A stretch of DNA of 64,000 bases from Bacteroidota bacterium (GCA_005798825.1 SYIL01000018.1:134163-198162); one strand, 5' to 3'; positions 3,532 to 17,079 are shown, counted from the stretch's first letter. Program-made: numbers and translations. The notes: a model not told the origin generated them from the letters alone.

Positions 3532-5874
3532 TTAATCGGGTATTTCAAAAACTTGTTCTGAGAGTTCATCTTTAGAATTGAGATATTTCTCAAACGAAAG
3601 AATAAAGCAAGGGAGAAGCAATAAATTCGCAGTCATTCCCATGAAAAGTGTTAATCCCGTTAGATATCCCATTGCTTGTGTACCTTGAAAATCAGAAAAA
3701 ATAAAGATTAAGAATCCTGCACAAATTGCAGCCATACTATACAACATACTCAAACCCACTTCCTTAATTGTATGGTCAATGGCCTCGCGAACACTTCGAT
3801 TCATTTTGACCAATTCTCTGCGAAAACAAATAATAAAATGAATGGTCGCATCAACGGTAATACCAAAAGCAATACTAAAAATTAATATCGTAGATGGCTT
3901 CAAGGGAATATCGAAATAACCCATGGCACCTGCCGTAACTAAAAGTGGGATAACATTTGGCAAAATAGCGATGATAACCATTCGAAAAGAAGGAAATAAA
4001 AAACCCATTGTGAGGGAAATAATAATAAGAGACCAAAATGTCGCACTACGCAAACTACCCAACAAATAAGAAACACCCTTTAAAAATATCGGTGAAGTGC
4101 CAGTAATCTCTGTGCTATATTCCTGGGAAGGAAAATGGTGTTCCAGTATACCTTTAATTTGTTGGTTGATAATTTCAAATTTATCGGAACCAACATCTTT
4201 TATCTGATAACTAACTCGTAGTTTAGAATGAGAACTATCAATCAAACCATGCATAAAATTACTCGATTTTTTGAACTTTTCTTCGGGCATTCTTGCGGCA
4301 ATATCAGCCAAATTTATGCTATTGGGAAGACGATAAAAATTTGAATTATTATCATTGACCACCTGGTTGGCATAAGATAGAACCTCAATCAAAGACATGG
4401 GTTTAGAGAGTTCAGGAAAGCGTTTGAGGGCTTTTTGGAGACGATTGACTTTGTCTAAAATTACTGGATTCATAATATCGCCCTCATCGACTGCTTTTAT
4501 GACTATTTCATAGGGCAATACCCCATGAAAATTATCTTGGAAATACCCCAAATCTTTATAAATTTTTGAATTGTGGGGTATATCATCAACTACAAACGCC
4601 AAGGGGCGAAGGCGCAAAATAAATACTGCACTCAGAATGGTGATTGAAAGGAAAAAAAAATAAATTCTCCGTCTACGGTTAAATACCATAAACTTAATCC
4701 AATCTAGGAAAAAACCCACATTGCGATTATTAAGGTGATTTACTTGATTATCACTTGGGGCAGATATAAAACTGTATACAACAGGAATTCCAATGATATT
4801 GACAATGAATATGATATTAATGGTAACAAATGCAAGCAATCCAAATTGCTCAAGCGTCTGAATTTTGGTAAAATAAAAAGTTCCAAAACCCACAGCAGTC
4901 GTAAAATTAATCAGAAAATTGGCAATGCCTACATTCGATATAACACGAATTAAGGCTGTGTTTTTGTCCTTGAGTCGGCGAAATTCTTCGTGGTATTTAT
5001 TAATGAGATAAATACAATTCTGAACCCCGACAACAACCAACAAAGGGGGTAAAGTACCAGAAATTAATGTAAGCTTATACTCCAACAATGCGGCCAAACC
5101 AAACATAGTTATGACCCCAAATGCAATAAAAGTTATGGCTATAACAAGGGTTTTTAAACTTCGAAAAAATAAAAAAAGCAAGAGTGCTGTTACCAAAAAA
5201 GCAATTACTGTAAATAAAATAATTTCCTTGCGGACCGTAGTTGCAATATCTGTTTTCACATAGGGTAATCCGCTGATATGCATTTCAGCATGTATTTCTT
5301 TTTCAAACCCATCAGCCATGGTTTTAATTTCTTCCATAAGACGAATACGGGATTTAGTATCAATCGTTTTTTTATCTACAATAAGCAATACCAAAGCCGA
5401 TCCAGTTGACTCATTGTATAAAAGTCCTTGGTAAAATCGCATATTTAAAAATGCCATTTTTAAACTGTCTAGGTCTGTTTGGGTTCTTGGGAAATTGGCA
5501 ATGAAAGGTTTTAAGACGAATTTTTCACCGGTATCTAGTTTTAATGCAAGTAAGTGTGTTGGAGAAAGAACTTGTTTAACACCCTGCAATTTTGATAAGC
5601 CTTCACAAAATCTGAACAAATGTCCAAATTCCGCCAAATTAAATACTTTTAGACTGGTAAATCCCAGAACGATTTTATTATTGTCATCCCCAAACGATTT
5701 TTGAAATTGCAAATACTCTTGAAAATTTGGATCATTTTTTGGAACAATTGTTGGTGCTTGGTAGTCAATCTCTACCTTGGTAGCAAAATACCCCATTATA
5801 CCAGTAAAAACCAAAATCGCTAGTATGAAATAGGTGCGTTTCTTGATTATAAAAAAGGCGATTTTATCCCACAT
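3532..5874 (-). CDS. MMPL/RND family membrane transporter
   Basis: Two repeats of one TM, a periplasmic loop and several TMs; SGLPY, TTAVGFGT and GITVDATIHF motifs. Confidence 0.85.
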   Translation of the reverse strand: MWDKIAFFIIKKRTYFILAILVFTGIMGYFATKVEIDYQAPTIVPKNDPNFQEYLQFQKSFGDDNNKIVLGFTSLKVFNLAEFGHLFRFCEGLSKLQGVKQVLSPTHLLALKLDTGEKFVLKPFIANFPRTQTDLDSLKMAFLNMRFYQGLLYNESTGSALVLLIVDKKTIDTKSRIRLMEEIKTMADGFEKEIHAEMHISGLPYVKTDIATTVRKEIILFTVIAFLVTALLLFLFFRSLKTLVIAITFIAFGVITMFGLAALLEYKLTLISGTLPPLLVVVGVQNCIYLINKYHEEFRRLKDKNTALIRVISNVGIANFLINFTTAVGFGTFYFTKIQTLEQFGLLAFVTINIIFIVNIIGIPVVYSFISAPSDNQVNHLNNRNVGFFLDWIKFMVFNRRRRIYFFFLSITILSAVFILRLRPLAFVVDDIPHNSKIYKDLGYFQDNFHGVLPYEIVIKAVDEGDIMNPVILDKVNRLQKALKRFPELSKPMSLIEVLSYANQVVNDNNSNFYRLPNSINLADIAARMPEEKFKKSSNFMHGLIDSSHSKLRVSYQIKDVGSDKFEIINQQIKGILEHHFPSQEYSTEITGTSPIFLKGVSYLLGSLRSATFWSLIIISLTMGFLFPSFRMVIIAILPNVIPLLVTAGAMGYFDIPLKPSTILIFSIAFGITVDATIHFIICFRRELVKMNRSVREAIDHTIKEVGLSMLYSMAAICAGFLIFIFSDFQGTQAMGYLTGLTLFMGMTANLLLLPCFILSFEKYLNSKDELSEQVFEIPD

Positions 5875-5882
5875 ATTGTTTC

Positions 5883-5890
5883 CAAATATA
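5883..5890 (-). promoter_or_regulatory. Bacteroidota -7 promoter element for the MMPL gene
   Basis: TATATTTG matches TAnnTTTG, 9 nt upstream of the ATG. Confidence 0.55.
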
Positions 5891-5896
5891 CAAACT

Positions 5897-5927
5897 AAAA
5901 AACAAAGGCCGACCTGATGGCCGGCCT
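5897..5927 (-). terminator. Intrinsic terminator of the rpsF-rpsR-rplI operon
   Basis: Stem aggccgacc/ggccggcct (one mismatch) followed by ttgtttttt on the minus strand, 22 nt after the rplI stop. Confidence 0.7.
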
Positions 5928-5948
5928 AATGCATATTAAATAAAACTA

Positions 5949-6389
5949 TCAGGCTGCAACTACTTCAAGTGTAATGCTAACATTAATATCTTTGAATAAA
6001 TTGATATTTACTTCGTAAGCACCAATGGTTTTGATATCATCAAAAACAATCTTACGACGATCTACATCAAATCCTTTGTCTTTTAAAGCATTGGCTACTT
6101 GTAAACTGGTAACTGAGCCAAATATTTTGCCACTATTACCTGCTTTCGCAGTTACACTAATGGTTGAACCATTTAATTTACCCGCCAACAAATCGGCATC
6201 TTTACGCAGCTTATCTAATTTGAAGGAGCGTTGGCGAATGTCTTCTGCCAACATCTTTAATGCACCTTCTGAAGCCAATTTGGCTTTCCCTGTAGGGATT
6301 AAAAAGTTTCTCCCATACCCATCCTTTACGACAACAACATCATCTTTGAGTCCAAGGGTTTTCACATCTTGATTGAGAATTATTTTCAT
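5949..6389 (-). CDS. rplI: 50S ribosomal protein L9
   Basis: MKIILNQDVKTLG, VKDGYGRNFLIP, GKIFGSVT. Confidence 0.98.
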   Translation of the reverse strand: MKIILNQDVKTLGLKDDVVVVKDGYGRNFLIPTGKAKLASEGALKMLAEDIRQRSFKLDKLRKDADLLAGKLNGSTISVTAKAGNSGKIFGSVTSLQVANALKDKGFDVDRRKIVFDDIKTIGAYEVNINLFKDINVSITLEVVAA

Positions 6390-6405
6390 GTTATATTTCT
6401 CCTAT

Positions 6406-6669
6406 TTATTTTAGTCCATCAGCAACAAAAGGCAACAATGCAATGTGACGTGCCCTTTTAATCGCTATGGAAATTTTACGTTGATACTTCAAAGAGGTAC
6501 CGGTGATACGACGAGGTAAAATCTTACCTTGTTCATTTATGAACTTCAACAAAAATTCTCCGTCCTTGAAATCGATATATTTAATACCGTGTTTTTTGAA
6601 CCTACAATATTTCTTCTTTTGAAGTACTTGCGGTGTTTGGTTGAAAATAAAATTTGAGTCTTTGCTCAT
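6406..6669 (-). CDS. rpsR: 30S ribosomal protein S18
   Basis: [36 protein letters not shown]. Confidence 0.98.
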
Positions 6670-7070
6670 AACACTGCCTCCTCAATTATGATTTTCTTTT
6701 TTACAATGACTTTTTCACCTTGTGGTGTTACTGTACGAAGCTCCCCGTTGCGTTTGCGGTGGTTGAAATCCACACCCCAACGATCTAACTTCACAGTTAG
6801 GTAACGCAATACACGCTCGTCACGGCGGAAAGCCAGTTCGAAAGACTTGATGAATTCCGGGCTTGCCTTGAATTCGAACAAGTGATAAAATCCCGTGCCT
6901 TTTTTCTGGATAGGGTAGGCTAATTTGGTTAGTCCCCAATTTTCTTCGTGGACTAACTCCCCTCCATTGCCGGTGATCAACTCTCTGAAGCCTGCAACAG
7001 CGTCTTTCATCTGTTGCTCAGAGAGCACGGGTGTCAAAATGATCACGGTCTCGTAGTGGTTGGTATTCAT
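6666..7070 (-). CDS. rpsF: 30S ribosomal protein S6
   Basis: [30 protein letters not shown]; 4-nt ATGA overlap with rpsR. Confidence 0.98.
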
Positions 7071-7185
7071 TTGGCTATAAAATTAGGGCTGCGAAGATAG
7101 TGATTTCCCCATTCAATAGCAAGTATAATCGGATTTTATGGTTGCGACCACTTCCCTTCCCATCCGTCCAAAATCACCTTGTCGA

Positions 7186-7398
7186 TCAAGGCACCGGATC
7201 ATACCCGCTCCCACCCCAAGGATGACAACGCAAAATTCGCTTGGTCGCAAGCCAAAAACCCTTGAATGGACCGTGTTTCTGCAAGGCTTGCACACCGTAT
7301 TGGCTGCAAGAGGGCACGAACCGACAACTGTTGGGCAGCAGCGGTGATAGGACATATTGATACACACGAATGAATGCCAACAGCAAACCATTCACCAT
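7186..7398 (-). CDS. yidD: Membrane protein insertion efficiency factor
   Basis: [42 protein letters not shown]. Alternative upstream ATG at 7470 overlaps rnpA. Confidence 0.95.
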
Positions 7399-7444
7399 CC
7401 TACCCGGCAACGACCGTTTCTGAGCATCCTCCGACAATGGCGTT

Positions 7445-7867
7445 TTAGGGGTTGGACAATTCGAGCACATCGTAGATTTTTTTTAACAGCACTTGGTACG
7501 ACTTCTCCAACTGCTTCATTTCTGGAAGTTCACTGCCCGTATACATTAAGGCGATGGCCAAGGTAATGCTTTTCGATTCGATGGCTTGATACAATGGTAG
7601 TTTGTTCTGGCGATAGACTTCACGCAAACGGCGCTTTACAAAATTGCGATCCACAGCGCGCTTGAACTTTCGTTTGCTGGCCGTAAACACCACTTGCACC
7701 GGAACCCCTGGCACGGGTAATTCTGTAATCAACAAATTGGCACGCAGCGGATACTTTGAAACAAAAACGCCAGACTGAAACAATCCGGCGACAATTTTTT
7801 TACTACTGAGCTTCTCGGTTTTACCGAAAGCCTGTCCCAAACGATATGGCAACACCTTCGAAGTCAT
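7445..7867 (-). CDS. rnpA: Ribonuclease P protein component
   Basis: [22 protein letters not shown] (RNR motif); lies between rpmH and yidD. Confidence 0.93.
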
Positions 7868-7893
7868 TGCCTTGCTTGCACAGACAAAGGTGA

Positions 7894-8055
7894 TTAACCC
7901 TTGTGACTGCGTTCGTTAGATACTGTAAGACTTTCACGACCGCGTTTGCGACGAGCAGCCAAAACCCTACGACCATTGGCAGTTGCCATTCTTTCACGGA
8001 AACCGTGACGGTTCTTGCGTTTTCTGTTCGAGGGTTGGTATGTGCGTTTGGTCAT
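7894..8055 (-). CDS. rpmH: 50S ribosomal protein L34 (53 aa; missed by the ORF track)
   Basis: Hand translation: [53 protein letters not shown]. Confidence 0.98.
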
Positions 8056-8079
8056 GATTGAAAATGCTTAAAAGGGCAG

Positions 8080-8111
8080 CAAATATACAAGGATTCACAT
8101 TACTTTGCAAG
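8080..8111 (-). promoter_or_regulatory. Promoter of rpmH-rnpA-yidD
   Basis: CTTG (-33-like), 20 nt, then TATATTTG (-7). Confidence 0.6.
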
Positions 8112-8227
8112 AACACGCCCTCTTTTTTTTCATACCACTGTGCTATCTCCTTCATTGCCTTCAAATCCATACAACGAAGCACCGTTTTGTTAAAAAATAA
8201 AAATCAACAATTACATCGGCAATCACT

Positions 8228-8248
8228 TTGTTAATAAATAATTAACAA
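8228..8248. promoter_or_regulatory. Palindromic operator-like site upstream of the TonB-dependent receptor
   Basis: Perfect inverted repeat TTGTTAAT-aaata-ATTAACAA, 50 nt before the ATG. Confidence 0.45.
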
Positions 8249-8298
8249 TAATGAAACTTTCATTTTGTTACTTCGCTTACTACAAATAGCCAAAAAAA

Positions 8299-11200
8299 AT
8301 GAAAAAAAACCTTTCAATCATTATCTGCGCCATCTTCTTTACAGGAAGTGCATTGGCACAGGTAACTACCGCTTACTTGAGTGGCGTTGTTACCAATGGA
8401 AACACCGCAGTAGAAAACGCTACCATCAAAGCGGTCTTAACCACCACCACAGCAACGTACACCGCAAACACCCGTTCAGAGGGAGGGTACGACATCTCTA
8501 ACTTAAATGCCGGCGGTCCTTACACCGTGACCATTTCTGCGCCTGGCTTGAAAGACATCGTATTTACCGATGTGTTCCTGACACTGGGTGAAAACTTCAA
8601 ATTAGACGCCGATTTCACCACGGAGAAAATCGGTGGCGTAGTTGTGAGCAATTTTCGTAACGCAAGCAAAACCGGTAGCAACATGAACATCAACAGTCGC
8701 ACACTCAACACCCTGCCAACCATCTCTCGTTCAATCAGTGATTTCACCCGTTTGACTCCTCAAGCCGGAAGCGGTAGTAGTTTCAATGGTCGCGATGGTC
8801 GCTTCAATAATATCACAATTGATGGTGCCAACTTTAACAACAACTTCGGTTTGAGCGACAAAAACTTGCCCGGTGGCGATGCGCAGCCCATTTCTTTGGA
8901 TGCGATTGAAGCCGTTCAGGTGAACATCTCTCCTTTCGATGTACGTCAGTCAAACTTCACCGGTGCTGGTATCAACGCCATCACCAAAAGTGGTTCAAAT
9001 AAAACCACAGCATCCGTTTACACTTTGATGCGCAACGAAAGCTTCAACGGTACCAAAGTAGATACCTTTGACTTGGGCGAACAAAAGAAAACCTCATCCA
9101 ACATTGTGGGTTTCCGTTTGGGTGGTGCCTTGGTAAAAGACAAAATCTTCTACTTCGTGAACTACGAAAACGAGAAAACATCGTTGCCTGGTTTGCAATG
9201 GAAAGCATCTCGTCCAGGTACTGGCCAAAGCGTTTCTGATCCAAATTTGTCGCGTACGTTGGCTACGGACTTGGATTTGGTTCGCACGCACTTGAAAGAA
9301 AAATACGGTTACGAAACCGGCGATTACGAAAATCTGGGCAATTTTATCACTGCCAACCAAAAATTCTTGGCCCGTATTGATTGGAACATTTCTGCCAAGC
9401 ACAAATTCAGCTTGCGTTACACTTCCGTCAGCAATGCCAACGACCAAGTATTGAATGGTACTTCTGCACCAAACCCACGTTCATCTTCAAACCGTTGGAG
9501 TAACAATTCAATGAGCTTTGCAAATTCAAACTACTCTTTTGACAATAAAGTATGGTCATTAGCGGGTGAATTGAAGAGCAATTTAAGCAACAAAGTGAGT
9601 AACCAATTATTGCTGACCTACACCAGCATCACCGATGCCCGTGGAACCAACAGCACACCGTTCCCATTCGTAGATATTAAAAAAGGCGGTGACAACTACA
9701 TGAGCTTCGGTTATGAGTTGTTCAGCTATAACAACAAAGTAAGCAACAACACTTTGTCGTTCATTGACAACATTACCTACAACATGAAAAAGCACACCAT
9801 CACTGCGGGTGTAGCGTACGATCAGATGTATGTGGGTAACGCATTCCAACGCTATGGTAGTAGCTACTATCGTTACGATTCATTGAGTCAGTTCTTGAAC
9901 GGCAAGGCTCCTTCTGCTTATGCTTTGACTTATGGTTACGGTGGCGATGATACCCCAGTGGGTGCTGAATTGTCGTTCGGTCAGTTGGCTGGGTACGTGC
10001 AAGACGAATTCCGTGCCAGCAAGAAACTGAAAATCACCGCAGGTTTGCGTGTGGATGTACCCATTTACACTTCTGAGTCTAAAGCCAATGCTGGCTTCGC
10101 TAAATACGATACCGCGGCTTTGTTTAAAGACCCTTCAGGAACTGCCATCAAATACAACCCCAACAACTGGCCCGCAGGTTCTCCTTTGGTATCGCCCCGA
10201 GTAGGTTTCAACTACGATGTTAATGGCGACAAAGATTTAATTATCCGAGGTGGAACAGGTGTCTTCACCGGTCGTTTGCCTTTCGTTTGGTTCACCAACC
10301 AGCCTTCAAACGCCTATGGTGTGCAAGCAACTGTAGAGGTAACCAAAGCGGCTGATTTGGCCGGTTACATTTTCAATGCCGACCCAACTACTTACTTGAA
10401 CAAGTTCCCAACCACCCCTGGCACATTGCCATCGGGTGCATCATTTGCCAAGGTAGACAACAACTTCAAGTTTCCTCAGGTTTGGAGAACTAGCATCGGA
10501 ATCGACAAGAAATTGCCTTTCGATTTGGATTTCTCTGCTGATATCATCTACACCAAGGAACTGAACGGTGTTTATCAGTACAACGCCAACTATGCGAAGG
10601 CTGACACGACGTATTTCACTGGCACAGAATGGGAGCGTGCTGCTTACAAGAAAGCCGCAAGTCGCTCTTATGTTGGAACCGTGCGTGAAGCGATGGTTTT
10701 GAGCAACACCAACCTAGGCAGTGGCTTGAGTGCAGCATTCACTTTGAGCCGCAACTTCAAAAAAGGCTTGATCGGATCAATTAGTTACGCTTTCAACAAC
10801 ACCAAAGACATTACGTCTAACCCTGGTTCTCAAGCGGCATCAGCTTGGAGCAATAACCGCACCGTGGGCGGAAACAACGCACAAGAGTTGGCCATTTCTG
10901 AATACTCTACCCCCAACCGTGTGATTGCCAACATTTCGAAGAAGTTTGAATATGGCAATCGTTTCGCTACCACCGTAAGTTTGGTTTACGATGGTTACAA
11001 CCCAGGTCGCTACAGTTATGTTTACTCAACCGATATCAACAACGATGGTTTAACGGGTAACGATTTGTTGTTCGTACATGCATCTTCGGATATCAAATTC
11101 TCTGACCTAGTCGTAAGTGCTAAGACCATCACCGCTGCTGACCAAGCCAAAGCTTGGGATGCCTACGTTGCACAAGACAAATATTTGAGCGCCCACAAAG

Positions 11201-11532
11201 GCCAATTCGTTGAGCGCAACGGTGGTTTGTTACCGTGGTTGCACCGCTTCGATTTGCGTTTATTGCAGGACATTGCCCAGAACATTGGCAAGAACAAGCA
11301 CACATTGCAATTGAGTGCTGATATCTTGAACATTGGTAACATGATCAACCCTGCATGGGGTATCCGCAAGCAAATGACTGTAAGCAACGGTGGTGTATTG
11401 AGATACAACGCCACCAATGGCACTTACAACTTCAATGCTGTAAACGGTGTGTTGCCTGTTGAAAGTTTCCGTCCTATCGTAAGCACCTCAACCACTTGGG
11501 GCATGCAGTTGGGATTGCGTTATTCTTTCTAA
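8299..11532 (+). CDS. Oar-like TonB-dependent receptor with N-terminal carboxypeptidase-regulatory-like domain
   Basis: Signal peptide, GGPYTVTIS, IDGANFNNNFGL, FTGAGINAITKSGSN plug motif, SPRVGFNYD, C-terminal QLGLRYSF (terminal Phe). Confidence 0.92.
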   Translation: MKKNLSIIICAIFFTGSALAQVTTAYLSGVVTNGNTAVENATIKAVLTTTTATYTANTRSEGGYDISNLNAGGPYTVTISAPGLKDIVFTDVFLTLGENFKLDADFTTEKIGGVVVSNFRNASKTGSNMNINSRTLNTLPTISRSISDFTRLTPQAGSGSSFNGRDGRFNNITIDGANFNNNFGLSDKNLPGGDAQPISLDAIEAVQVNISPFDVRQSNFTGAGINAITKSGSNKTTASVYTLMRNESFNGTKVDTFDLGEQKKTSSNIVGFRLGGALVKDKIFYFVNYENEKTSLPGLQWKASRPGTGQSVSDPNLSRTLATDLDLVRTHLKEKYGYETGDYENLGNFITANQKFLARIDWNISAKHKFSLRYTSVSNANDQVLNGTSAPNPRSSSNRWSNNSMSFANSNYSFDNKVWSLAGELKSNLSNKVSNQLLLTYTSITDARGTNSTPFPFVDIKKGGDNYMSFGYELFSYNNKVSNNTLSFIDNITYNMKKHTITAGVAYDQMYVGNAFQRYGSSYYRYDSLSQFLNGKAPSAYALTYGYGGDDTPVGAELSFGQLAGYVQDEFRASKKLKITAGLRVDVPIYTSESKANAGFAKYDTAALFKDPSGTAIKYNPNNWPAGSPLVSPRVGFNYDVNGDKDLIIRGGTGVFTGRLPFVWFTNQPSNAYGVQATVEVTKAADLAGYIFNADPTTYLNKFPTTPGTLPSGASFAKVDNNFKFPQVWRTSIGIDKKLPFDLDFSADIIYTKELNGVYQYNANYAKADTTYFTGTEWERAAYKKAASRSYVGTVREAMVLSNTNLGSGLSAAFTLSRNFKKGLIGSISYAFNNTKDITSNPGSQAASAWSNNRTVGGNNAQELAISEYSTPNRVIANISKKFEYGNRFATTVSLVYDGYNPGRYSYVYSTDINNDGLTGNDLLFVHASSDIKFSDLVVSAKTITAADQAKAWDAYVAQDKYLSAHKGQFVERNGGLLPWLHRFDLRLLQDIAQNIGKNKHTLQLSADILNIGNMINPAWGIRKQMTVSNGGVLRYNATNGTYNFNAVNGVLPVESFRPIVSTSTTWGMQLGLRYSF

Positions 11533-11575
11533 GCCAATCCATTATTCGCCCTAGGCGATTCGTATTGATTCAATT

Positions 11576-11612
11576 AAAAGGAGGGGAGGCCGTTGGCCTC
11601 CCCCCCTTTTTT
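11576..11612 (+). terminator. Intrinsic terminator, probably bidirectional
   Basis: ggggaggcc-gtt-ggcctcccc stem with a downstream T run and an upstream A run. Confidence 0.8.
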
Positions 11613-11765
11613 ACCCAAATCGAACCCATGCGAATGACCAGAATATCAACACATTGTTAATCCTGTAATCGATTGTAGAAAAATAAGTTCACATTGTTTA
11701 CCAAAAGGTAAAAATCAATTCAAACCCCGATTACATCATGGAAATAATGTTGGAATTGAAAAACC

Positions 11766-11945
11766 ATGAAAAATCTTTTCAAAACCCCAGCAGCAACTGG
11801 CCTGATAATCCTCTTCGGCCCCTTGCTCAATTCTGCATCAGCACAATCCATGCTGATCTCATAAGTGTTTGTCAATCCATCGGGTACCGACTCATGCAAA
11901 GAATTTGTAGAGCTCGTTGCCACCAAATCCATCGATTTCAGCGCG
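11766..11945 (+). pseudogene. Truncated remnant of a secreted lamin-tail-domain-like protein, with an in-frame TAA
   Basis: One frame reads [59 protein letters not shown]: a signal peptide plus an ISEVxxNPxGxD..EFVEL motif, broken by TAA at 11862-11864 and ending where metG sequence begins on the other strand. Confidence 0.7.
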
Positions 11946-13653
11946 CCGCTGTTGCCTGCAACTTCGCAATCTGCGCCTCAATCACATCATCTTCAATTTT
12001 CTGAAACAACAAGCCCGCAGCGCCCAGTGTATGTCCTTCAGCCAACTCAAACCATTTGCCGGGCTGCGGCCCAGACAACCAGAACGGTTGTTTATCATCG
12101 GTAGATACCTCAACACCCAACTGCGACAACAAACGGCTGCTCGCATCCGGCATAAACGGTTCCATCAGTAAAGCCAAATTGTATAGCACCTGCACCGCCT
12201 CACTCAACACCATCGCCGTTGCCTCAGCATCGGTCTTCACCAACTTCCAAGGCTCGTGTTCGGCCAAATATTTGTTCCCCAATCGGGCCAATTCCATCAT
12301 TTTAAATTGCGCATCGCGGAACTGATAGTTGTTTAACAAATCAACTACCGGACGCAGATACTCGACAACCATGGGATGATCACCCGCACTACCGTGATCA
12401 AACAGTGCATAAGGCTCACGCACGGCACCCACCGCAGGCATCACCCCTTCGTAATATTTCTGCATCAACACCAACACACGGTTGGCGAAATTGCCTAAAA
12501 TCCCCACCAACTCTGAATTTACACGGGTTTGGTAATCCTTCCAGGTAAACTCACTGTCCTTGGTCTCAGGGGCGATCGAGGTCAGCACATACCGCAACTC
12601 ATCCTTTCGGTTCGGCATTTCTTCCAAATATTCATTCAACCACACCGCCCAATTTCTGCTGGTCGATATTTTCTGTCCTTCCAAATTCAAAAACTCATTC
12701 GCCGGCACCTGTTCAGGCAACACATATCCATCGCCGCGCAAATACAACATCGCCGGGAAAATGATACAATGAAATACGATGTTGTCCTTGCCAATGAAAT
12801 GCACCAAATGAGAATCACCCGTCCACCATTGCTCCCAATCATTCGGACGCAATTCTTTGGTGGCCGAAATGTATCCAATGGGCGCTTCAAACCACACATA
12901 CAACACCTTACCATCTGCGCCTTCTAAAGGCACAGGCACACCCCACTCCAAATCGCGGGTCATCGCCCTGGGCCTCAAACCCTCATTCAACCAACTCTTA
13001 CACTGTCCGAACACATTGCTCTTCCAATGCGATTTTCCACCCAACCATTCATTCAAAAAGGTCTCTTGAATTTCATCCAAAGGCAAGTACCAGTTCACCG
13101 TTTCTTTCATCACAGGAACGGTGCCACTCAACGCCGATTTGGGATTGAGCAATTCCGTTGGGCTCAACGTACTCCCACACTTTTCGCACTGATCGCCGTA
13201 AGCACCTTCATTTTTGCAGGATGGACAAGTACCAACAATATAGCGATCTGCCAAAAACTGCCCCGCCTGCTCATCGAAATACTGCTCGGAGCGAATCTCT
13301 TTGAAGGCCCCTTTCTCGTAAAGATTTTTAAAAAATACCTGCGACAATTCTTTGTGAGTGGCATTCGACGTGCGCGAATAGATATCGAACGATATGCCCA
13401 ATTCCTTGAACGAATCACCGATGATTTTATGGTAGCGATTCACCACATCTTGTGAGGTAACGCCCTCTTTCCTTGCCCTCAGCGTAATTGGCACGCCATG
13501 CTCGTCGCTACCGCAAATAAACAGCACCTCTTCACCCCGCAACCGTTGGACACGGGCGTGGATATCGGCAGGAATATAAACCCCAGCCAAATGGCCAATG
13601 TGTATGGGCCCATTGGCATAAGGAAGGGCAGCGGTAATGGTAATCTTCGACAT
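11938..13653 (-). CDS. metG: Methionine--tRNA ligase lacking the C-terminal dimerisation/tRNA-binding domain (571 aa)
   Basis: [25 protein letters not shown] zinc knuckles, KISTS; ends [20 protein letters not shown]. Confidence 0.95.
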
Positions 13654-13660
13654 GAGAGTA

Positions 13661-13668
13661 CAAAGATA
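13661..13668 (-). promoter_or_regulatory. -7 promoter element of metG
   Basis: TATCTTTG, 7 nt upstream of the ATG. Confidence 0.55.
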
Positions 13669-13671
13669 CTT

Positions 13672-16600
13672 TTACCGCGAATAAATCTGTAGGTATTTCT
13701 GCACGCTTTGTTTGTAATAGGGCTTGAATATTGGCTGAACCGATCGTAGCTGCTCCCTTTCTCTGATCTTCGTTCTCAAAACATCTGCCATTTCTTGGGG
13801 TATTTCGGGCGAATTTTCTTCGGCTCGATTGGATTCACGGCGCACTTCTTGATCTTGATTTCTATCAGCCTTTTCGTTTTCCAACAAGCGTGTCATAATT
13901 TGTTTTTGCCGTTCCATAGACTGTTGATTCAAACGCCCATTAACAATATCTTTTTCCTGTTGATTCATCAATTTTTCAATCTCCAATAGCGAATTAGACA
14001 TCCCCTGTTTACCCTCCTGTCCGAGCTGTTTTCGAAGTTGTTCCACCTGACGGCGAAGCGCCTCTTGCATTAAGGCCATTTTGGCCAAACCTTCACTTAA
14101 CTCTCGCTGGGTGGGTTCTCCAGATTCTCCCGCTTTTTCCGCTTTTCCTCCTGATTGAGATTTGCCAGATTGTGGTGGTTTGACTCGTTTCTGATTTTGT
14201 AATTTTTGTAATTTTTCACCGAGTTCTTTCTGTGCATCTGATAACTTATCACTGGGCTTGGGCTTTCCAGTTTTTCCTGATCCAGCGTTATTTGGGTTGT
14301 TACAACTTTTCTTCCCATCCTGCTTTTGTTGACTTGACATCTTTTGTTGCATATTTTGCAAACTTTCCATCAACATCTCAGCCAGATTATTGAGTCCAGT
14401 CATAACATATTGTTCATGCATGGCCGCTGAAGCAATTCCACGCACTTTCATTTCCTCTAACGCCATGGCCATTTGTGTGTTCACCCTAAGCATCTCTTTG
14501 CTTACAAAATTATTTATCATGGGCTGTCTTTTAGACAAGGCCATCAAACTATCTTCTATAAACAATAAAGACTCTTTTAGCCGCATTTGTTCTTTGTTGA
14601 GAGCAACTAATTTGGGGTTTTCAGGATTTACTTTTTGCATTTCAATAAAAATTGCTTCTTGTCTGTTCGAAGCCTCAATGAGATTTTCCAGCAAAGCCCT
14701 CAGGGTTTGGTAGTCCTCTGCTAATCTTTTGTTCTGTTCCTGCTCAAAATTTTCCTGCATCTCCTGCATTGCTTCTTTCATTTTCTGAGCAGACTTTCGC
14801 ATTTTTTCAGATGCAGCGGGTTTACGGTTATTCTGCAACTCTTGTGAGGCTTTCTGAGACTCGTTGCCAGCCTCCTTGCGCAGTTGTTCTCCCATCTTTA
14901 AATCCATCGGCTTTTCCAATTCTTGATTTTTTTTGCGTATGTCTTGAATGCCCTTTTCTATATCCAGTAAAGCCTCATTCTGCTTTTCTTGTTTCTGTAT
15001 AATGTCTTCAGATGTCTCTTTCCCCTTCTCCTTATCGGTTTGCACAGATAAATTTTCTTCCTTATCTACCCATTCCTGAATCTTTTCCAACTGATTTACC
15101 ATGGCCTCCTCTAGTTCTAATTCCTTTAGCTGCTCCATCAATTTATCCAATTCCTTTGCGGTTTCTTGACCCAACTGACTCAATTTTTGCATCTTTTCAT
15201 TTAACTGTTCTTTGTTTGCCTTTTGCTCTAATAAGGCATTGATCTCGTTTATCAATTTTTGCATTTCGGGATTAGTCAATTGCTTTATACGCTCATTTAA
15301 TGCATCTTTTTTTTTCTCAAGCTCTGCAGAAACGGGCGATAAATTCTTTTTTTGAATGCTAATTTGGGTTTGTTTTTTATCAATTTGTTTGAGGGTTTCC
15401 ACCAGTTTTTGTTGTTCATTAAGCCAGTTTTTGACCTTATTTTCTCCATCCCAATCCATGGCTTGCCTTTGCATGGTTTCCTGCAATTTCGCAGCCTCCT
15501 TTTGAAGTTCCTTCAGTGCCTTTGCAGAATTACCCATACCTTTTAATATAGTAGCCTCTTGTTTTTCTAATTCGCGCAGTACTTCTTTTTCAGAAGTTAC
15601 TTCCAAAGTGCGAATCGAAGTGCGAAACACCTTGCCTCCATGAATTGCATCATTGTCACGCAATACAAATTGGTATTCTAATTCTTCTCCACTTTGCAAA
15701 CCCATTGACAGCAAATCAATCGCGTGCATCACAGGTATATTTATTCCCAATCCATTAAACAATATTTTTTTGGACCACCCACTGTCTTTGGTGCGCAATC
15801 CAATATGTTTGATTCGAGACAAAAACAAAACTTCTTTTAATCCGTAATCATCATTTGCCAGACCCAAAAAATACCAGGTCCCCAATCTTACACTATCGGG
15901 CAAAGCATCTACCTGAATAGATGGATATTCATCGGCTTGTACAACCAAATTTGAGGTAAACGTATCAACTGAAAACCCATTAGGTCCTTTCATTGAAAAC
16001 CGTAAGCATTCGTTAGTTCGGGCGATATACTCAATTTGAGTAGTCTCGCCCTCTTTGGCAAAGAAAATTTTACCCTTATTAGAAGAATTATTTAACTGCC
16101 AAGCTTTCACATTCAAACCACGTAATTCCCAGACCAAACGAGTGCCTTCTGGAACCAATAGTGTTTCGGGATTTGTCATTTCGGCGTTCACAAAACCAGT
16201 ATATGAGGGGAAATACGCCTTCACATTTAAGGATTGCCACCGGGGTTTTTTGATTGCCGTTAAGACATATCCACCCAGTGAGAATCCCATAGATTCCAAT
16301 CTAAAGGGGGTGTTTTCATGAACAGATTCAAATACATATTGAAAATGGTCGGCATCCAATTTTCTCGCGCGAATGGATTGATTGTCCAAAACAACATCCA
16401 CAAAATCTGGGACCATAAGGCCAGAGGCCTTGATGTCTAAAACAAAACGGGAATCCTGATCTACAATTAACTTTGACTGATCGACAAAAAGCTGAAAAGG
16501 GGCTTCTTGGATATATTCTTTTTGATAATTAAAAACACGTTTAGCACCCAACAAAATTCCTGAAGATTGAGAAAGAACAAGGGCTACTAAAAACAAAAAA

Positions 16601-17079
16601 ACCACGCTCAAACGAAGTATCCATTTACGGTGTTTTTTCCAATCTAAAGCCATCAAAAAAGGAAATGCCTTGAGCGATTGTGTTTTCTGCTCAATCCCTG
16701 CCAAAAGCATATTATTGGCTTCCGAATGTTTTGCCATCTCTTCCATTTGCAATAAATTCAGTAACTTGTCTTGAACATCATTAAAATGCATACCTATAAA
16801 GTTTGCAGCCTCTTTGTGTGAAAGTACCCTCCCTACACCCCGCATTTTGAGATACGGAAAAATGACACCGTAAACCAATAAAAAAGAAAATCCAAGACAT
16901 ATAAACCAGAGTAAACAGAATCTTACTGAAACAGAAAACCAAAGATTATTCTCCAATAAAAAGATAAATGCACATAAAAACACCGAAGCTACAAGGGCAA
17001 AAAGGGAACCCCTCAACAACCTATGTCGATAGTATGTATGAATAAATTCATCCAGTTTAACCCGAATTCCCGCCTGCAT
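13672..17079 (-). CDS. DUF4175-like membrane-anchored coiled-coil protein
   Basis: N-terminal TMs, QDKLLNLLQM, DDYGL, long Q/E/K-rich coiled coil, RLLENEKA..QE near the C terminus. Confidence 0.75.
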   Translation of the reverse strand: MQAGIRVKLDEFIHTYYRHRLLRGSLFALVASVFLCAFIFLLENNLWFSVSVRFCLLWFICLGFSFLLVYGVIFPYLKMRGVGRVLSHKEAANFIGMHFNDVQDKLLNLLQMEEMAKHSEANNMLLAGIEQKTQSLKAFPFLMALDWKKHRKWILRLSVVFLFLVALVLSQSSGILLGAKRVFNYQKEYIQEAPFQLFVDQSKLIVDQDSRFVLDIKASGLMVPDFVDVVLDNQSIRARKLDADHFQYVFESVHENTPFRLESMGFSLGGYVLTAIKKPRWQSLNVKAYFPSYTGFVNAEMTNPETLLVPEGTRLVWELRGLNVKAWQLNNSSNKGKIFFAKEGETTQIEYIARTNECLRFSMKGPNGFSVDTFTSNLVVQADEYPSIQVDALPDSVRLGTWYFLGLANDDYGLKEVLFLSRIKHIGLRTKDSGWSKKILFNGLGINIPVMHAIDLLSMGLQSGEELEYQFVLRDNDAIHGGKVFRTSIRTLEVTSEKEVLRELEKQEATILKGMGNSAKALKELQKEAAKLQETMQRQAMDWDGENKVKNWLNEQQKLVETLKQIDKKQTQISIQKKNLSPVSAELEKKKDALNERIKQLTNPEMQKLINEINALLEQKANKEQLNEKMQKLSQLGQETAKELDKLMEQLKELELEEAMVNQLEKIQEWVDKEENLSVQTDKEKGKETSEDIIQKQEKQNEALLDIEKGIQDIRKKNQELEKPMDLKMGEQLRKEAGNESQKASQELQNNRKPAASEKMRKSAQKMKEAMQEMQENFEQEQNKRLAEDYQTLRALLENLIEASNRQEAIFIEMQKVNPENPKLVALNKEQMRLKESLLFIEDSLMALSKRQPMINNFVSKEMLRVNTQMAMALEEMKVRGIASAAMHEQYVMTGLNNLAEMLMESLQNMQQKMSSQQKQDGKKSCNNPNNAGSGKTGKPKPSDKLSDAQKELGEKLQKLQNQKRVKPPQSGKSQSGGKAEKAGESGEPTQRELSEGLAKMALMQEALRRQVEQLRKQLGQEGKQGMSNSLLEIEKLMNQQEKDIVNGRLNQQSMERQKQIMTRLLENEKADRNQDQEVRRESNRAEENSPEIPQEMADVLRTKIREREQLRSVQPIFKPYYKQSVQKYLQIYSR

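Follow-up and report, generated by a model that had tools for sequence, protein, structure and literature searches.

A GC-rich block of translation genes in a freshwater Flavobacteriales genome, probably introgressed from a distant species of the same genus

Within a 64,000-nucleotide (nt) stretch of a freshwater metagenome-assembled genome (MAG) of the Flavobacteriales, a block of about 6.5 kb that carries yidD, rnpA, rpmH, an outer-membrane receptor gene and metG is best explained as an introgressed tract from another species of the genus, one that is only distantly related and richer in GC, a reading to which a probability of roughly 0.85 is given. The stretch, hereafter the window, is Bacteroidota bacterium GCA_005798825.1 SYIL01000018.1:134163-198162, or C10:134,163-198,162 of the genome here called G000 (1.93 Mb in 45 contigs, GC 0.400, 91% complete). 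A step in composition, physical continuity of the DNA, conserved synteny, discordant gene trees, donor-like codon usage and the co-occurrence of a population resembling G013, a congener from the putative donor clade (clade B), were all observed. The features are listed here by window coordinates and strand; G012 is the sister species of G000.

3532-5874, minus strand: HAE3/MMPL-type RND transporter, the gene left of rplI (NCBIfam TIGR00921, Pfam MMPL); native left flank
5949-6389, minus strand: rplI (L9; TIGR00158); native
6406-6669, minus strand: rpsR (S18; TIGR00165); native composition, overlaps the rpsF stop (ATGA)
6666-7070, minus strand: rpsF (S6; TIGR00166); likely crossover anchor
6714-7101, no strand: left crossover interval from the site-pattern change-point; best estimate 7,056-7,100
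7186-7470, minus strand: yidD (Pfam YidD, TIGR00278); probably imported, in an older event common to G012
7445-7867, minus strand: rnpA, RNase P protein (NCBIfam RNase P models, scores under the curated cut-offs); probably imported, in an older event common to G012
7894-8055, minus strand: rpmH (L34; TIGR01030); within the putatively imported segment
8299-11532, plus strand: Oar-like outer-membrane receptor (CarboxypepD_reg and OMP_b-brl_4; Pfam); variable-slot cargo
11766-11945, plus strand: remnant of a gene for a 1,363-amino-acid secreted protein, first ~61 codons with one in-frame stop (tblastn)
11940-11948, no strand: deletion junction, ~9.5 kb missing relative to G013
11938-13653, minus strand: metG, methionyl-tRNA synthetase (MetRS; NF001100, 663 bits); probably imported, in a younger event in the G000 line
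13417-13730, no strand: right crossover interval from the site-pattern change-point; best estimate 13,489-13,594
13672-17079, minus strand: DUF4175-like large protein (weak Pfam DUF4175 match); native right flank

Base composition and codon usage

In 500-nt windows the GC content is 0.33-0.37 at 4,500-6,750, rises to 0.47-0.49 at 6,751-8,000, remains at 0.43-0.51 up to about 13,750 and is back to 0.37-0.40 beyond 14,250; the AT-rich dips inside the block are intergenic (8,056-8,298 and 11,533-11,937). GC content at third codon positions (GC3) is 0.306 in the transporter gene, 0.293 in rplI and 0.352 in rpsR, then 0.533 in rpsF, 0.547 in yidD, 0.546 in rnpA, 0.407 in rpmH, 0.527 in the receptor gene and 0.573 in metG, and 0.386 in the DUF4175-like gene. 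The genome-wide mean is 0.373 (standard deviation, SD, 0.043; 1,472 open reading frames, ORFs, from simple ORF calls), and the block genes lie 3.6-4.6 SD higher. A 7-kb window placed on the block has a GC content of 0.462, compared with a mean of 0.400 (SD 0.014) for all 7-kb windows of G000, and is the second most GC-rich 7-kb stretch of the genome, behind a SusC/SusD locus on contig C37.

An earlier note, made from the sequence alone, had reported this GC step together with a switch of codon choice inside one operon, and both were confirmed: read codon by codon, the choice changes within rpsF, and the adjoining rplI and rpsR have a GC3 of 0.29-0.35. When codon usage was scored as a log-likelihood under a G013 model versus a G000 model, the block genes gave +0.074 to +0.100, with a G000 mean of -0.053 (SD 0.031).

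Relationships of flank and block genes

Four groups of relatives were defined by the flank genes: clade A (G000 and G012), clade B (G013, G008, G017, G009, G001, G007 and G018), clade C (G003, G014 and others) and clade D (G004 and G010). In the HAE3 transporter, clade A shares 61-62% amino acid (aa) identity with all 17 other congeners and 60% with G024, which belongs to a neighbouring genus; G000 and G012 share 96%, clades B and C are mutually 74-77% identical, and the tree places G000 and G012 outside all other congeners (support 99/98). Clade A rplI is 83-87% identical to those of clades B and C, which share 91-94% with each other; its GC3 is 0.293 in G000 versus 0.497 in G013, that of rpsR is 0.352 versus 0.54 in clade B, and species-tree-type sites prevail in rpsR. 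On the other side, the tree of the 3' 1.4 kb of the DUF4175-like gene sets G000 and G012 on a branch of 0.45 outside all congeners.

Single-gene trees, a kind of check that the earlier note had asked for, are incongruent, in that metG and rnpA of the block nest with clade B or G013 while the HAE3 and DUF4175 trees and the rplI identities put clade A outside. RnpA of G000 is 91% identical to that of G013 and 88% to that of G017, with 86% between G013 and G017 and 72-74% to clade C, and the rnpA tree makes clade A sister to G013 (91/92). YidD is 77% identical to that of G013, 57-65% to those of G017 and G001 and 47-62% to those of clade C, and its donor-type sites outnumber species-tree-type sites by 34:10 and 38:11. 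For the segment 7,080-8,055 as a whole, the split of clades A and B from clade C has support of 100/100, and monophyly of clade B without clade A was rejected by an unrooted approximately unbiased (AU) test (p-AU 7e-4). MetRS of G000 is 96% identical to that of G013, 95% to that of G008 and 90% to that of its sister G012; in the nucleotide tree G000 and G013 pair (99/98), nested within clade B, and the flank topology was rejected (AU p 7e-5). Conversely, the flanks reject the block grouping: HAE3 with rplI rejects clade A with G013 (p 6e-6), and DUF4175 rejects clade A with G013 and G008 (p 3e-5). Synonymous divergence, given as K4, between G000 and G013 is 1.63 (saturated) in HAE3 and 0.53 in metG. 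The MetRS matches listed include at least one congener, a 'Bacteroidetes bacterium' MAG from the Rimov reservoir, at 88%.

A yardstick for these values was taken from 453 kb of G013 (about a quarter of that genome; GC 0.461), which gave 320 putative orthologues, orthology being called by best tblastn match. Their median aa identity between G000 and G013 is 66.9% and their GC3 0.375 versus 0.519, a difference of -0.143 (SD 0.06). By identity to G013, metG ranks 3rd, rpsF 4th and rnpA 11th among the 320, each with a GC3 difference of about 0, and few genes are of this kind.

Physical continuity of the junctions

Both junctions are spanned without a break in the per-run Logan assemblies of three runs of one study (X1-X3). 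X2 and X3 each contain one 80,303-nt contig across 4,000-16,000, with 9-11 differences from the window, and X1 contains two contigs that meet at 12,524-12,553, remote from both junctions. Furthermore, G012, the nearest relative (92% nt identity across rplI-rpmH), carries the genes from DUF4175 through metG and rpmH to HAE3 on a single contig of 129,766 nt with a matching GC3 step (metG 0.574, rnpA 0.514, yidD 0.521, rplI 0.317, HAE3 0.324). On the basis of the run contigs and G012, the block is genuine DNA and no assembly error.

The co-occurrence of a G013-like population was read from variant contigs in run X4, where parts of rpsF and metG are covered by extra contigs with a depth of 28-35, compared with about 9 for the G000 population (each depth being a mean over the whole contig). 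In both genes, all 7 of the 7 variant sites on these extra contigs have the G013 allele. A clade B population shares the habitat.

Ends of the tract and the rpsF gene

On the right side, a drop near 13,700 takes identity to G013 from about 90% down to 59-69%, and identity to G012 climbs to about 92%. The change-point in site patterns lies at 13,489-13,594 (support 13,417-13,730), the fraction of donor-type sites being 0.81-0.84 to its left and 0.37 to its right. The left change-point lies at 7,056-7,100 (support 6,714-7,101; log-likelihood gain ~52), with donor-type sites at 0.29-0.33 to its left and 0.74-0.80 to its right, and donor-type sites prevail only from 7,077 onward.

The left interval is wide because the body of rpsF is near-invariant among the clades. 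From 7,070 to 6,850, merely 3-5 sites differ among clades A, B and C, and K4 of rpsF is 0.08-0.34 in every pair, compared with 1.6-1.8 in HAE3. The first ~110 codons hardly vary in nucleotide sequence and are rich in GC in all relatives, while the Lys-rich tail is AT-rich in each of them; even in the low-GC genus G024, rpsF has a GC3 of 0.484 versus 0.35-0.38 for its neighbours there. Since this composition is intrinsic to rpsF in all relatives, the step at ~6,725-6,740 is partly not due to import. The earlier note had placed the breakpoint inside rpsF on the basis of this step; the best estimate falls at the 5' end of rpsF or just upstream, and the crossover is bounded only to 6,714-7,101. 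Judged from these patterns, rpsF is a likely crossover anchor and not demonstrably imported.

Several smaller observations concern the same genes. Synonymous sites in rpsF at 6,850-7,070 are near-frozen genus-wide, with about 89% identity even to another genus. An Rfam scan of 5,000-15,000 gave nothing credible, so that no known RNA accounts for this conservation; RNA-level constraint (e.g. S6:S18 autoregulation) or recent genus-wide exchange are possible causes. Nucleotide identity between G000 and G012 is 95-99% across the transporter gene and drops to 81-90% across rplI-rpsR (window 5,900-6,750), and rpsR of clade A is nearer to that of clade C (95% aa) than to that of clade B (90%), a pattern that hints at further small recombination patches in the S6 operon. 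In G003, G004, G006, G008 and G018 the contigs stop at window positions ~7,047-7,081, at the 5' end of rpsF, and those of seven MAGs break within the receptor gene, consistent with near-identical sequence common to co-occurring species.

More than one import

Between G000 and G012, K4 of yidD-rnpA-rpmH is 0.12-0.22 (rpmH 0.12), similar to the 0.11 of the flank gene HAE3, and K4 of the same genes to clade B is 0.6-0.9, except for rpmH, at 0.20 to G017. Because the divergence between the two sisters is flank-like, one import before their split is indicated for these genes. In metG, K4 between G000 and G012 is 0.74 versus 0.11 for HAE3, and nucleotide identity to G013 is about 90% in metG and 85-90% in the receptor gene. 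The high metG divergence, the rejection of G000 and G012 monophyly and the absence of the receptor from G012 point to a second import over the right part of the block in the G000 line. A single import event was rejected by the AU test on metG (G000 and G012 monophyly, p 8e-5); the metG genes of G000 and G012 are not sisters, and at least two imports are needed. The earlier note had proposed that rpsF, yidD, rnpA, rpmH, the receptor gene and metG were swapped as one segment. Replacement from a GC-richer relative is borne out by trees, identities, codon usage and synteny; the single segment is not, as rpsF is unassignable and two or more events are involved.

The sequence of events may be pictured as follows. 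DNA from clade B (the group of G013, G008, G017 and relatives) would have replaced the resident homologous stretch by a RecA-type double crossover. One crossover would have fallen in or just upstream of rpsF, the 5' two-thirds of which are near-identical genus-wide and offer long exact matches, and the other at the metG 5' end or the metG/DUF4175 boundary. In an older step, yidD-rnpA-rpmH would have been imported before the split of G000 and G012, and in a later step the G000 line would have received the receptor gene and metG from a G013-like donor. The remaining cargo and the C-terminal domain of MetRS were removed by a 9.5-kb deletion, which would have taken place in the donor or after the import.

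A variable slot between rpmH and metG

The receptor lies in a slot whose size and contents vary across the genus. The interval between rpmH and metG is free of genes in G012 (~0.4 kb, non-coding) and measures ~0.7 kb in G015, ~6 kb in clade C and ~30 kb in G013. In G000 and G018 it holds the receptor gene only; in clade C it holds ppx, ppk1, a metallophosphoesterase gene and a glycosyltransferase gene; and in G013 it holds ~20 kb (SusD-like, DUF5690, oxidoreductase and other genes), the receptor gene, the gene for a 1,363-aa secreted protein and then the set from ppx to the glycosyltransferase gene. The receptor, labelled 'TBDR' in the earlier note, is by Pfam an Oar-like protein with a CarboxypepD_reg domain and an OMP_b-brl_4 barrel. 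It is 91-95% identical (aa) to copies in 10 congeners and absent from G012 and 8 others; its nucleotide identity is 85-94% among all clades, and its star-like tree conflicts with the flank tree.

Positions 11,404-11,944 align to G013 C189:1978-2521, the 3' flank of the receptor gene; this homology stops at 11,944, and the match to metG, from about codon 570, begins at precisely that point, the mark of a deletion of ~9.5 kb in G000. The G013 interval missing from G000 comprises the gene for the 1,363-aa protein, ppx, ppk1, the metallophosphoesterase and glycosyltransferase genes and the C-terminal domain of MetRS. A remnant at 11,766-11,945 matches (tblastn, 80% aa over 61 residues) the 1,363-aa gene that follows the receptor in G013, and no homologues of the G013 ppx, ppk1, metallophosphoesterase or glycosyltransferase were found anywhere in the 91%-complete G000 genome. 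MetRS of G000 has 571 aa and lacks the C-terminal tRNA-binding domain, relatives having 706-717 aa. This domain was lost in G000, G012, G018 and G015 at four different points of an Ala-rich linker, and these four are the sampled genomes without ppx, ppk1, the phosphoesterase and the glycosyltransferase beside metG; the losses are recurrent, independent deletions.

The earlier note had also held that translation genes were swapped along with a nutrient receptor. The receptor does lie between swapped genes, but it is cargo of a variable slot and absent from G012. As slot cargo it gives a reason for the swap of the bordering core genes, and yidD, rnpA, rpmH and metG would most likely have been carried along as slot contents changed hands. 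Moreover, clade D joins clade C in the metG tree but clade B in the trees of HAE3 and DUF4175; this placement and the conflict in the receptor tree suggest that the locus was exchanged in other lineages too. Together with the MAG breaks at rpsF and in the receptor gene and the four MetRS deletion points, they are hints of a wider, tentative idea, which we hold to be possible but on balance doubtful: the slot might be a genus-wide recombination hotspot, at which deeply diverged freshwater Flavobacteriales that live together (~67% aa) exchange cargo time and again by way of the most conserved adjacent genes. If so, a side effect would be that rnpA, rpmH, yidD, metG and perhaps rpsF stay much more similar than other parts of the genomes.

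Gene order and mobile elements

The order DUF4175-metG-[slot]-rpmH-rnpA-yidD-rpsF-rpsR-rplI-HAE3 is kept across the genus and in the neighbouring genus G024, which argues for replacement rather than insertion. The earlier note's statement that no integrase or insertion sequence is present held in family searches (NCBIfam, Pfam): no integrase or transposase was found among the ORFs of the block, every one of which is a housekeeping gene, the receptor gene or the remnant. A tRNA gene search at the block gave none, a search for flanking repeats gave short chance repeats only, and block proteins had no match among the PHROG phage families. An island of the integrase type, an integrative and conjugative element or a prophage was ruled out, as there is no integrase, transposase, tRNA/att site or flanking direct repeat.

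Alternative explanations

The earlier note had named a chimeric assembly as the alternative. An assembler or binning step would have jumped between co-occurring congeners at the conserved rpsF and metG sequence, and circumstances for such a jump exist, since a G013-like population co-occurs, the X4 contigs fragment precisely in rpsF and metG, the MAG contigs of five relatives terminate at the rpsF 5' end and several further high-GC3 genes of G000 are located at contig ends. This is nevertheless very improbable, being contradicted by unbroken contigs across both junctions from three separately assembled runs and by a different species, G012, that has an equal step and equal native flanks on its 130-kb contig. 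In addition, the block is merely ~83-90% identical to G013, so that no co-occurring G013-like genome was spliced in, and it has private alleles in G000 where the X4 relative differs.

The composition might also have arisen with no transfer at all, if the block had kept an ancestral, higher GC content while the rest of clade A drifted AT-ward, for instance through local GC-biased gene conversion or selection. The block GC3 does equal that of congeners, and rpsF, with near-invariant synonymous sites in all lineages, illustrates that a local gene can hold a high GC3; however, a retained block should show the species topology on shortened branches, whereas clade A nests within clade B and the species topology was rejected by AU tests. 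Retention is rendered unlikely, too, by RnpA of G000 being closer to that of G013 (91%) than G013 is to G017 (86%), by metG of G000 being nearer to G013 than G013 is to G008, and by the metG K4 between the sisters (0.74, compared with 0.11 in the flank). Expression-linked codon bias is a further candidate, given that rpsF and rpmH encode ribosomal proteins, outer-membrane receptors are often abundant and AAC, CAC, TAC, ATC and TTC are C-ending codons of the type favoured by translational selection in highly expressed genes. Yet equally conserved native genes have a low GC3 (L13 0.385, S9 0.299, S2 0.348, GAPDH 0.378), as do rplI and rpsR in the same operon as rpsF (0.29-0.35), the weakly expressed yidD and rnpA reach 0.55, and the bias leaves the tree discordance unexplained; it is refuted for yidD, rnpA and metG, possibly contributes in rpsF only, and as an account of the block is highly unlikely. 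Finally, clade B might have taken the genes from clade A, as discordance by itself shows no direction, but in composition and codon usage the block matches clade B and is an outlier in clade A alone, and the clade A sequences branch from amid several lineages of clade B; a transfer in this direction is scarcely credible.

Import from clade B into G000 has its own difficulties. All relatives are MAGs, with one per species. When the AU test on 7,080-8,055 included the distant and very long outgroup G024, the flank topology was not rejected (p 0.17), and for this segment the rejection comes from the unrooted test alone. The high GC3 of rpsF is intrinsic in all relatives, and this part of the observed step does not come from import. 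No sampled genome is the donor, the nearest, G013, being ~90% identical (nt) in metG (K4 0.53) and ~83% over rpsF-rpmH, and this leaves donor identity and dates loose. That the core genes most likely hitch-hiked with the slot is, moreover, read from the anatomy of the locus. These points weigh against the introgression described above.

Comparison with known systems

Introgression of core genes between species by homologous recombination has been surveyed (PMC9650840; PMC12615716), the classic case being Campylobacter coli and C. jejuni (PMC3749442). As in those cases, a congener homologue replaced a resident core segment with synteny kept and no mobile-element genes, as seen by tree discordance and donor-like sequence. 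Introgression was found to be highest where two species exceed 90% identity, with translation and ribosomal genes significantly under-represented among introgressed genes (P < 1e-5; PMC12615716). Here, by contrast, median aa identity between the donor and recipient clades is ~67%, synonymous sites are saturated, and the tract consists mostly of translation genes. The kind of event is therefore already known, and this instance is unusual in the distance between donor and recipient and in its content of translation genes.

Replacement flexible genomic islands are exchanged via bordering core genes, in which an excess of synonymous differences was attributed to island-swapping recombination (Lopez-Perez et al., 2014; PMC4033161). 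The present locus resembles them in having a fixed slot between the same core genes with differing contents, bordered by a metG whose K4 (0.74) exceeds that of the flank (0.11). Flexible islands are a within-species concept with contents of similar function, mostly surface glycosylation (PMC4033161). The rpmH-metG slot differs in involving deep clades of a genus and unrelated functions by presence or absence, and in having been nearly emptied in the streamlined clade A.

Housekeeping genes can also travel with a neighbour under selection. The pbp genes hitch-hike beside the pneumococcal capsule locus, and Nelson and Selander reportedly described in 1994 the hitch-hiking of gnd beside the O-antigen (rfb) cluster in E. 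coli and Salmonella. In each, as here, housekeeping genes are replaced together with an adjacent variable surface or uptake locus under selection; those cases lie within or between very close species and their selection is documented, whereas selection on the receptor or slot would here have to be deduced. Horizontal transfer of aminoacyl-tRNA synthetase genes is said to have been treated by Woese, Olsen, Ibba and Soll in 2000. The likeness is that metG has a history different from that of its host genome, although the classic synthetase cases are distant, often cross-phylum xenologous displacements, and the present one is an in-place homologous replacement from a congener.

What the locus offers is a case of informational genes (RNase P protein, L34, YidD and MetRS) replaced in place over a large distance, in a class reported as least introgression-prone. 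The GC contrast between donor and recipient allows the tract to be recognised from its composition alone and its ends to be mapped. Caution is warranted when these markers are treated as vertical in phylogenomics of the genus, and conserved ribosomal-protein genes can act as recombination anchors for the swapping of neighbouring nutrient-uptake cargo in streamlined lake bacteria.

Other candidate tracts

Among the 1,472 ORFs of G000, 63 (~4%) are better described by the codon model of G013 than by that of G000. Clade-B-like genes elsewhere in G000 include those at C14:474-1,874 (RlmD), C28:1,441-2,178 (KdsB) and C11:45,361-45,714, with a GC3 of 0.54-0.64 and 91-97% aa identity to G013, and none of the three is more than about 1.5 kb away from the end of a contig. 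For RlmD, nt identity to G013 is 90% over 1.6 kb and 69% thereafter. Cross-binning of identical sequence was ruled out for such high-GC3 genes at contig ends, RlmD being 90% and not ~100% identical to G013; they are probably more introgressed tracts, and the location suggests that the contigs end at assembly forks where congeners share sequence.

Other GC3-rich regions of G000 (C37:570-8,497, C44:15,601-19,887 and C29:32,658-40,045) are loci of polysaccharide-use type with donor-like codon usage. They hold a SusC-like 950-aa barrel, SusD-like, glycoside hydrolase-like and 1,429-aa secreted glycanase-like proteins, names that come from reading the sequences, with no family search. A reverse case was seen in G013, where the gene at locus L153 has a GC3 of 0.27 (G013 mean 0.52) and is 84% identical (aa) to G000 C40:2,561-4,853, which has a GC3 of 0.33; here clade B may have taken in a low-GC gene.

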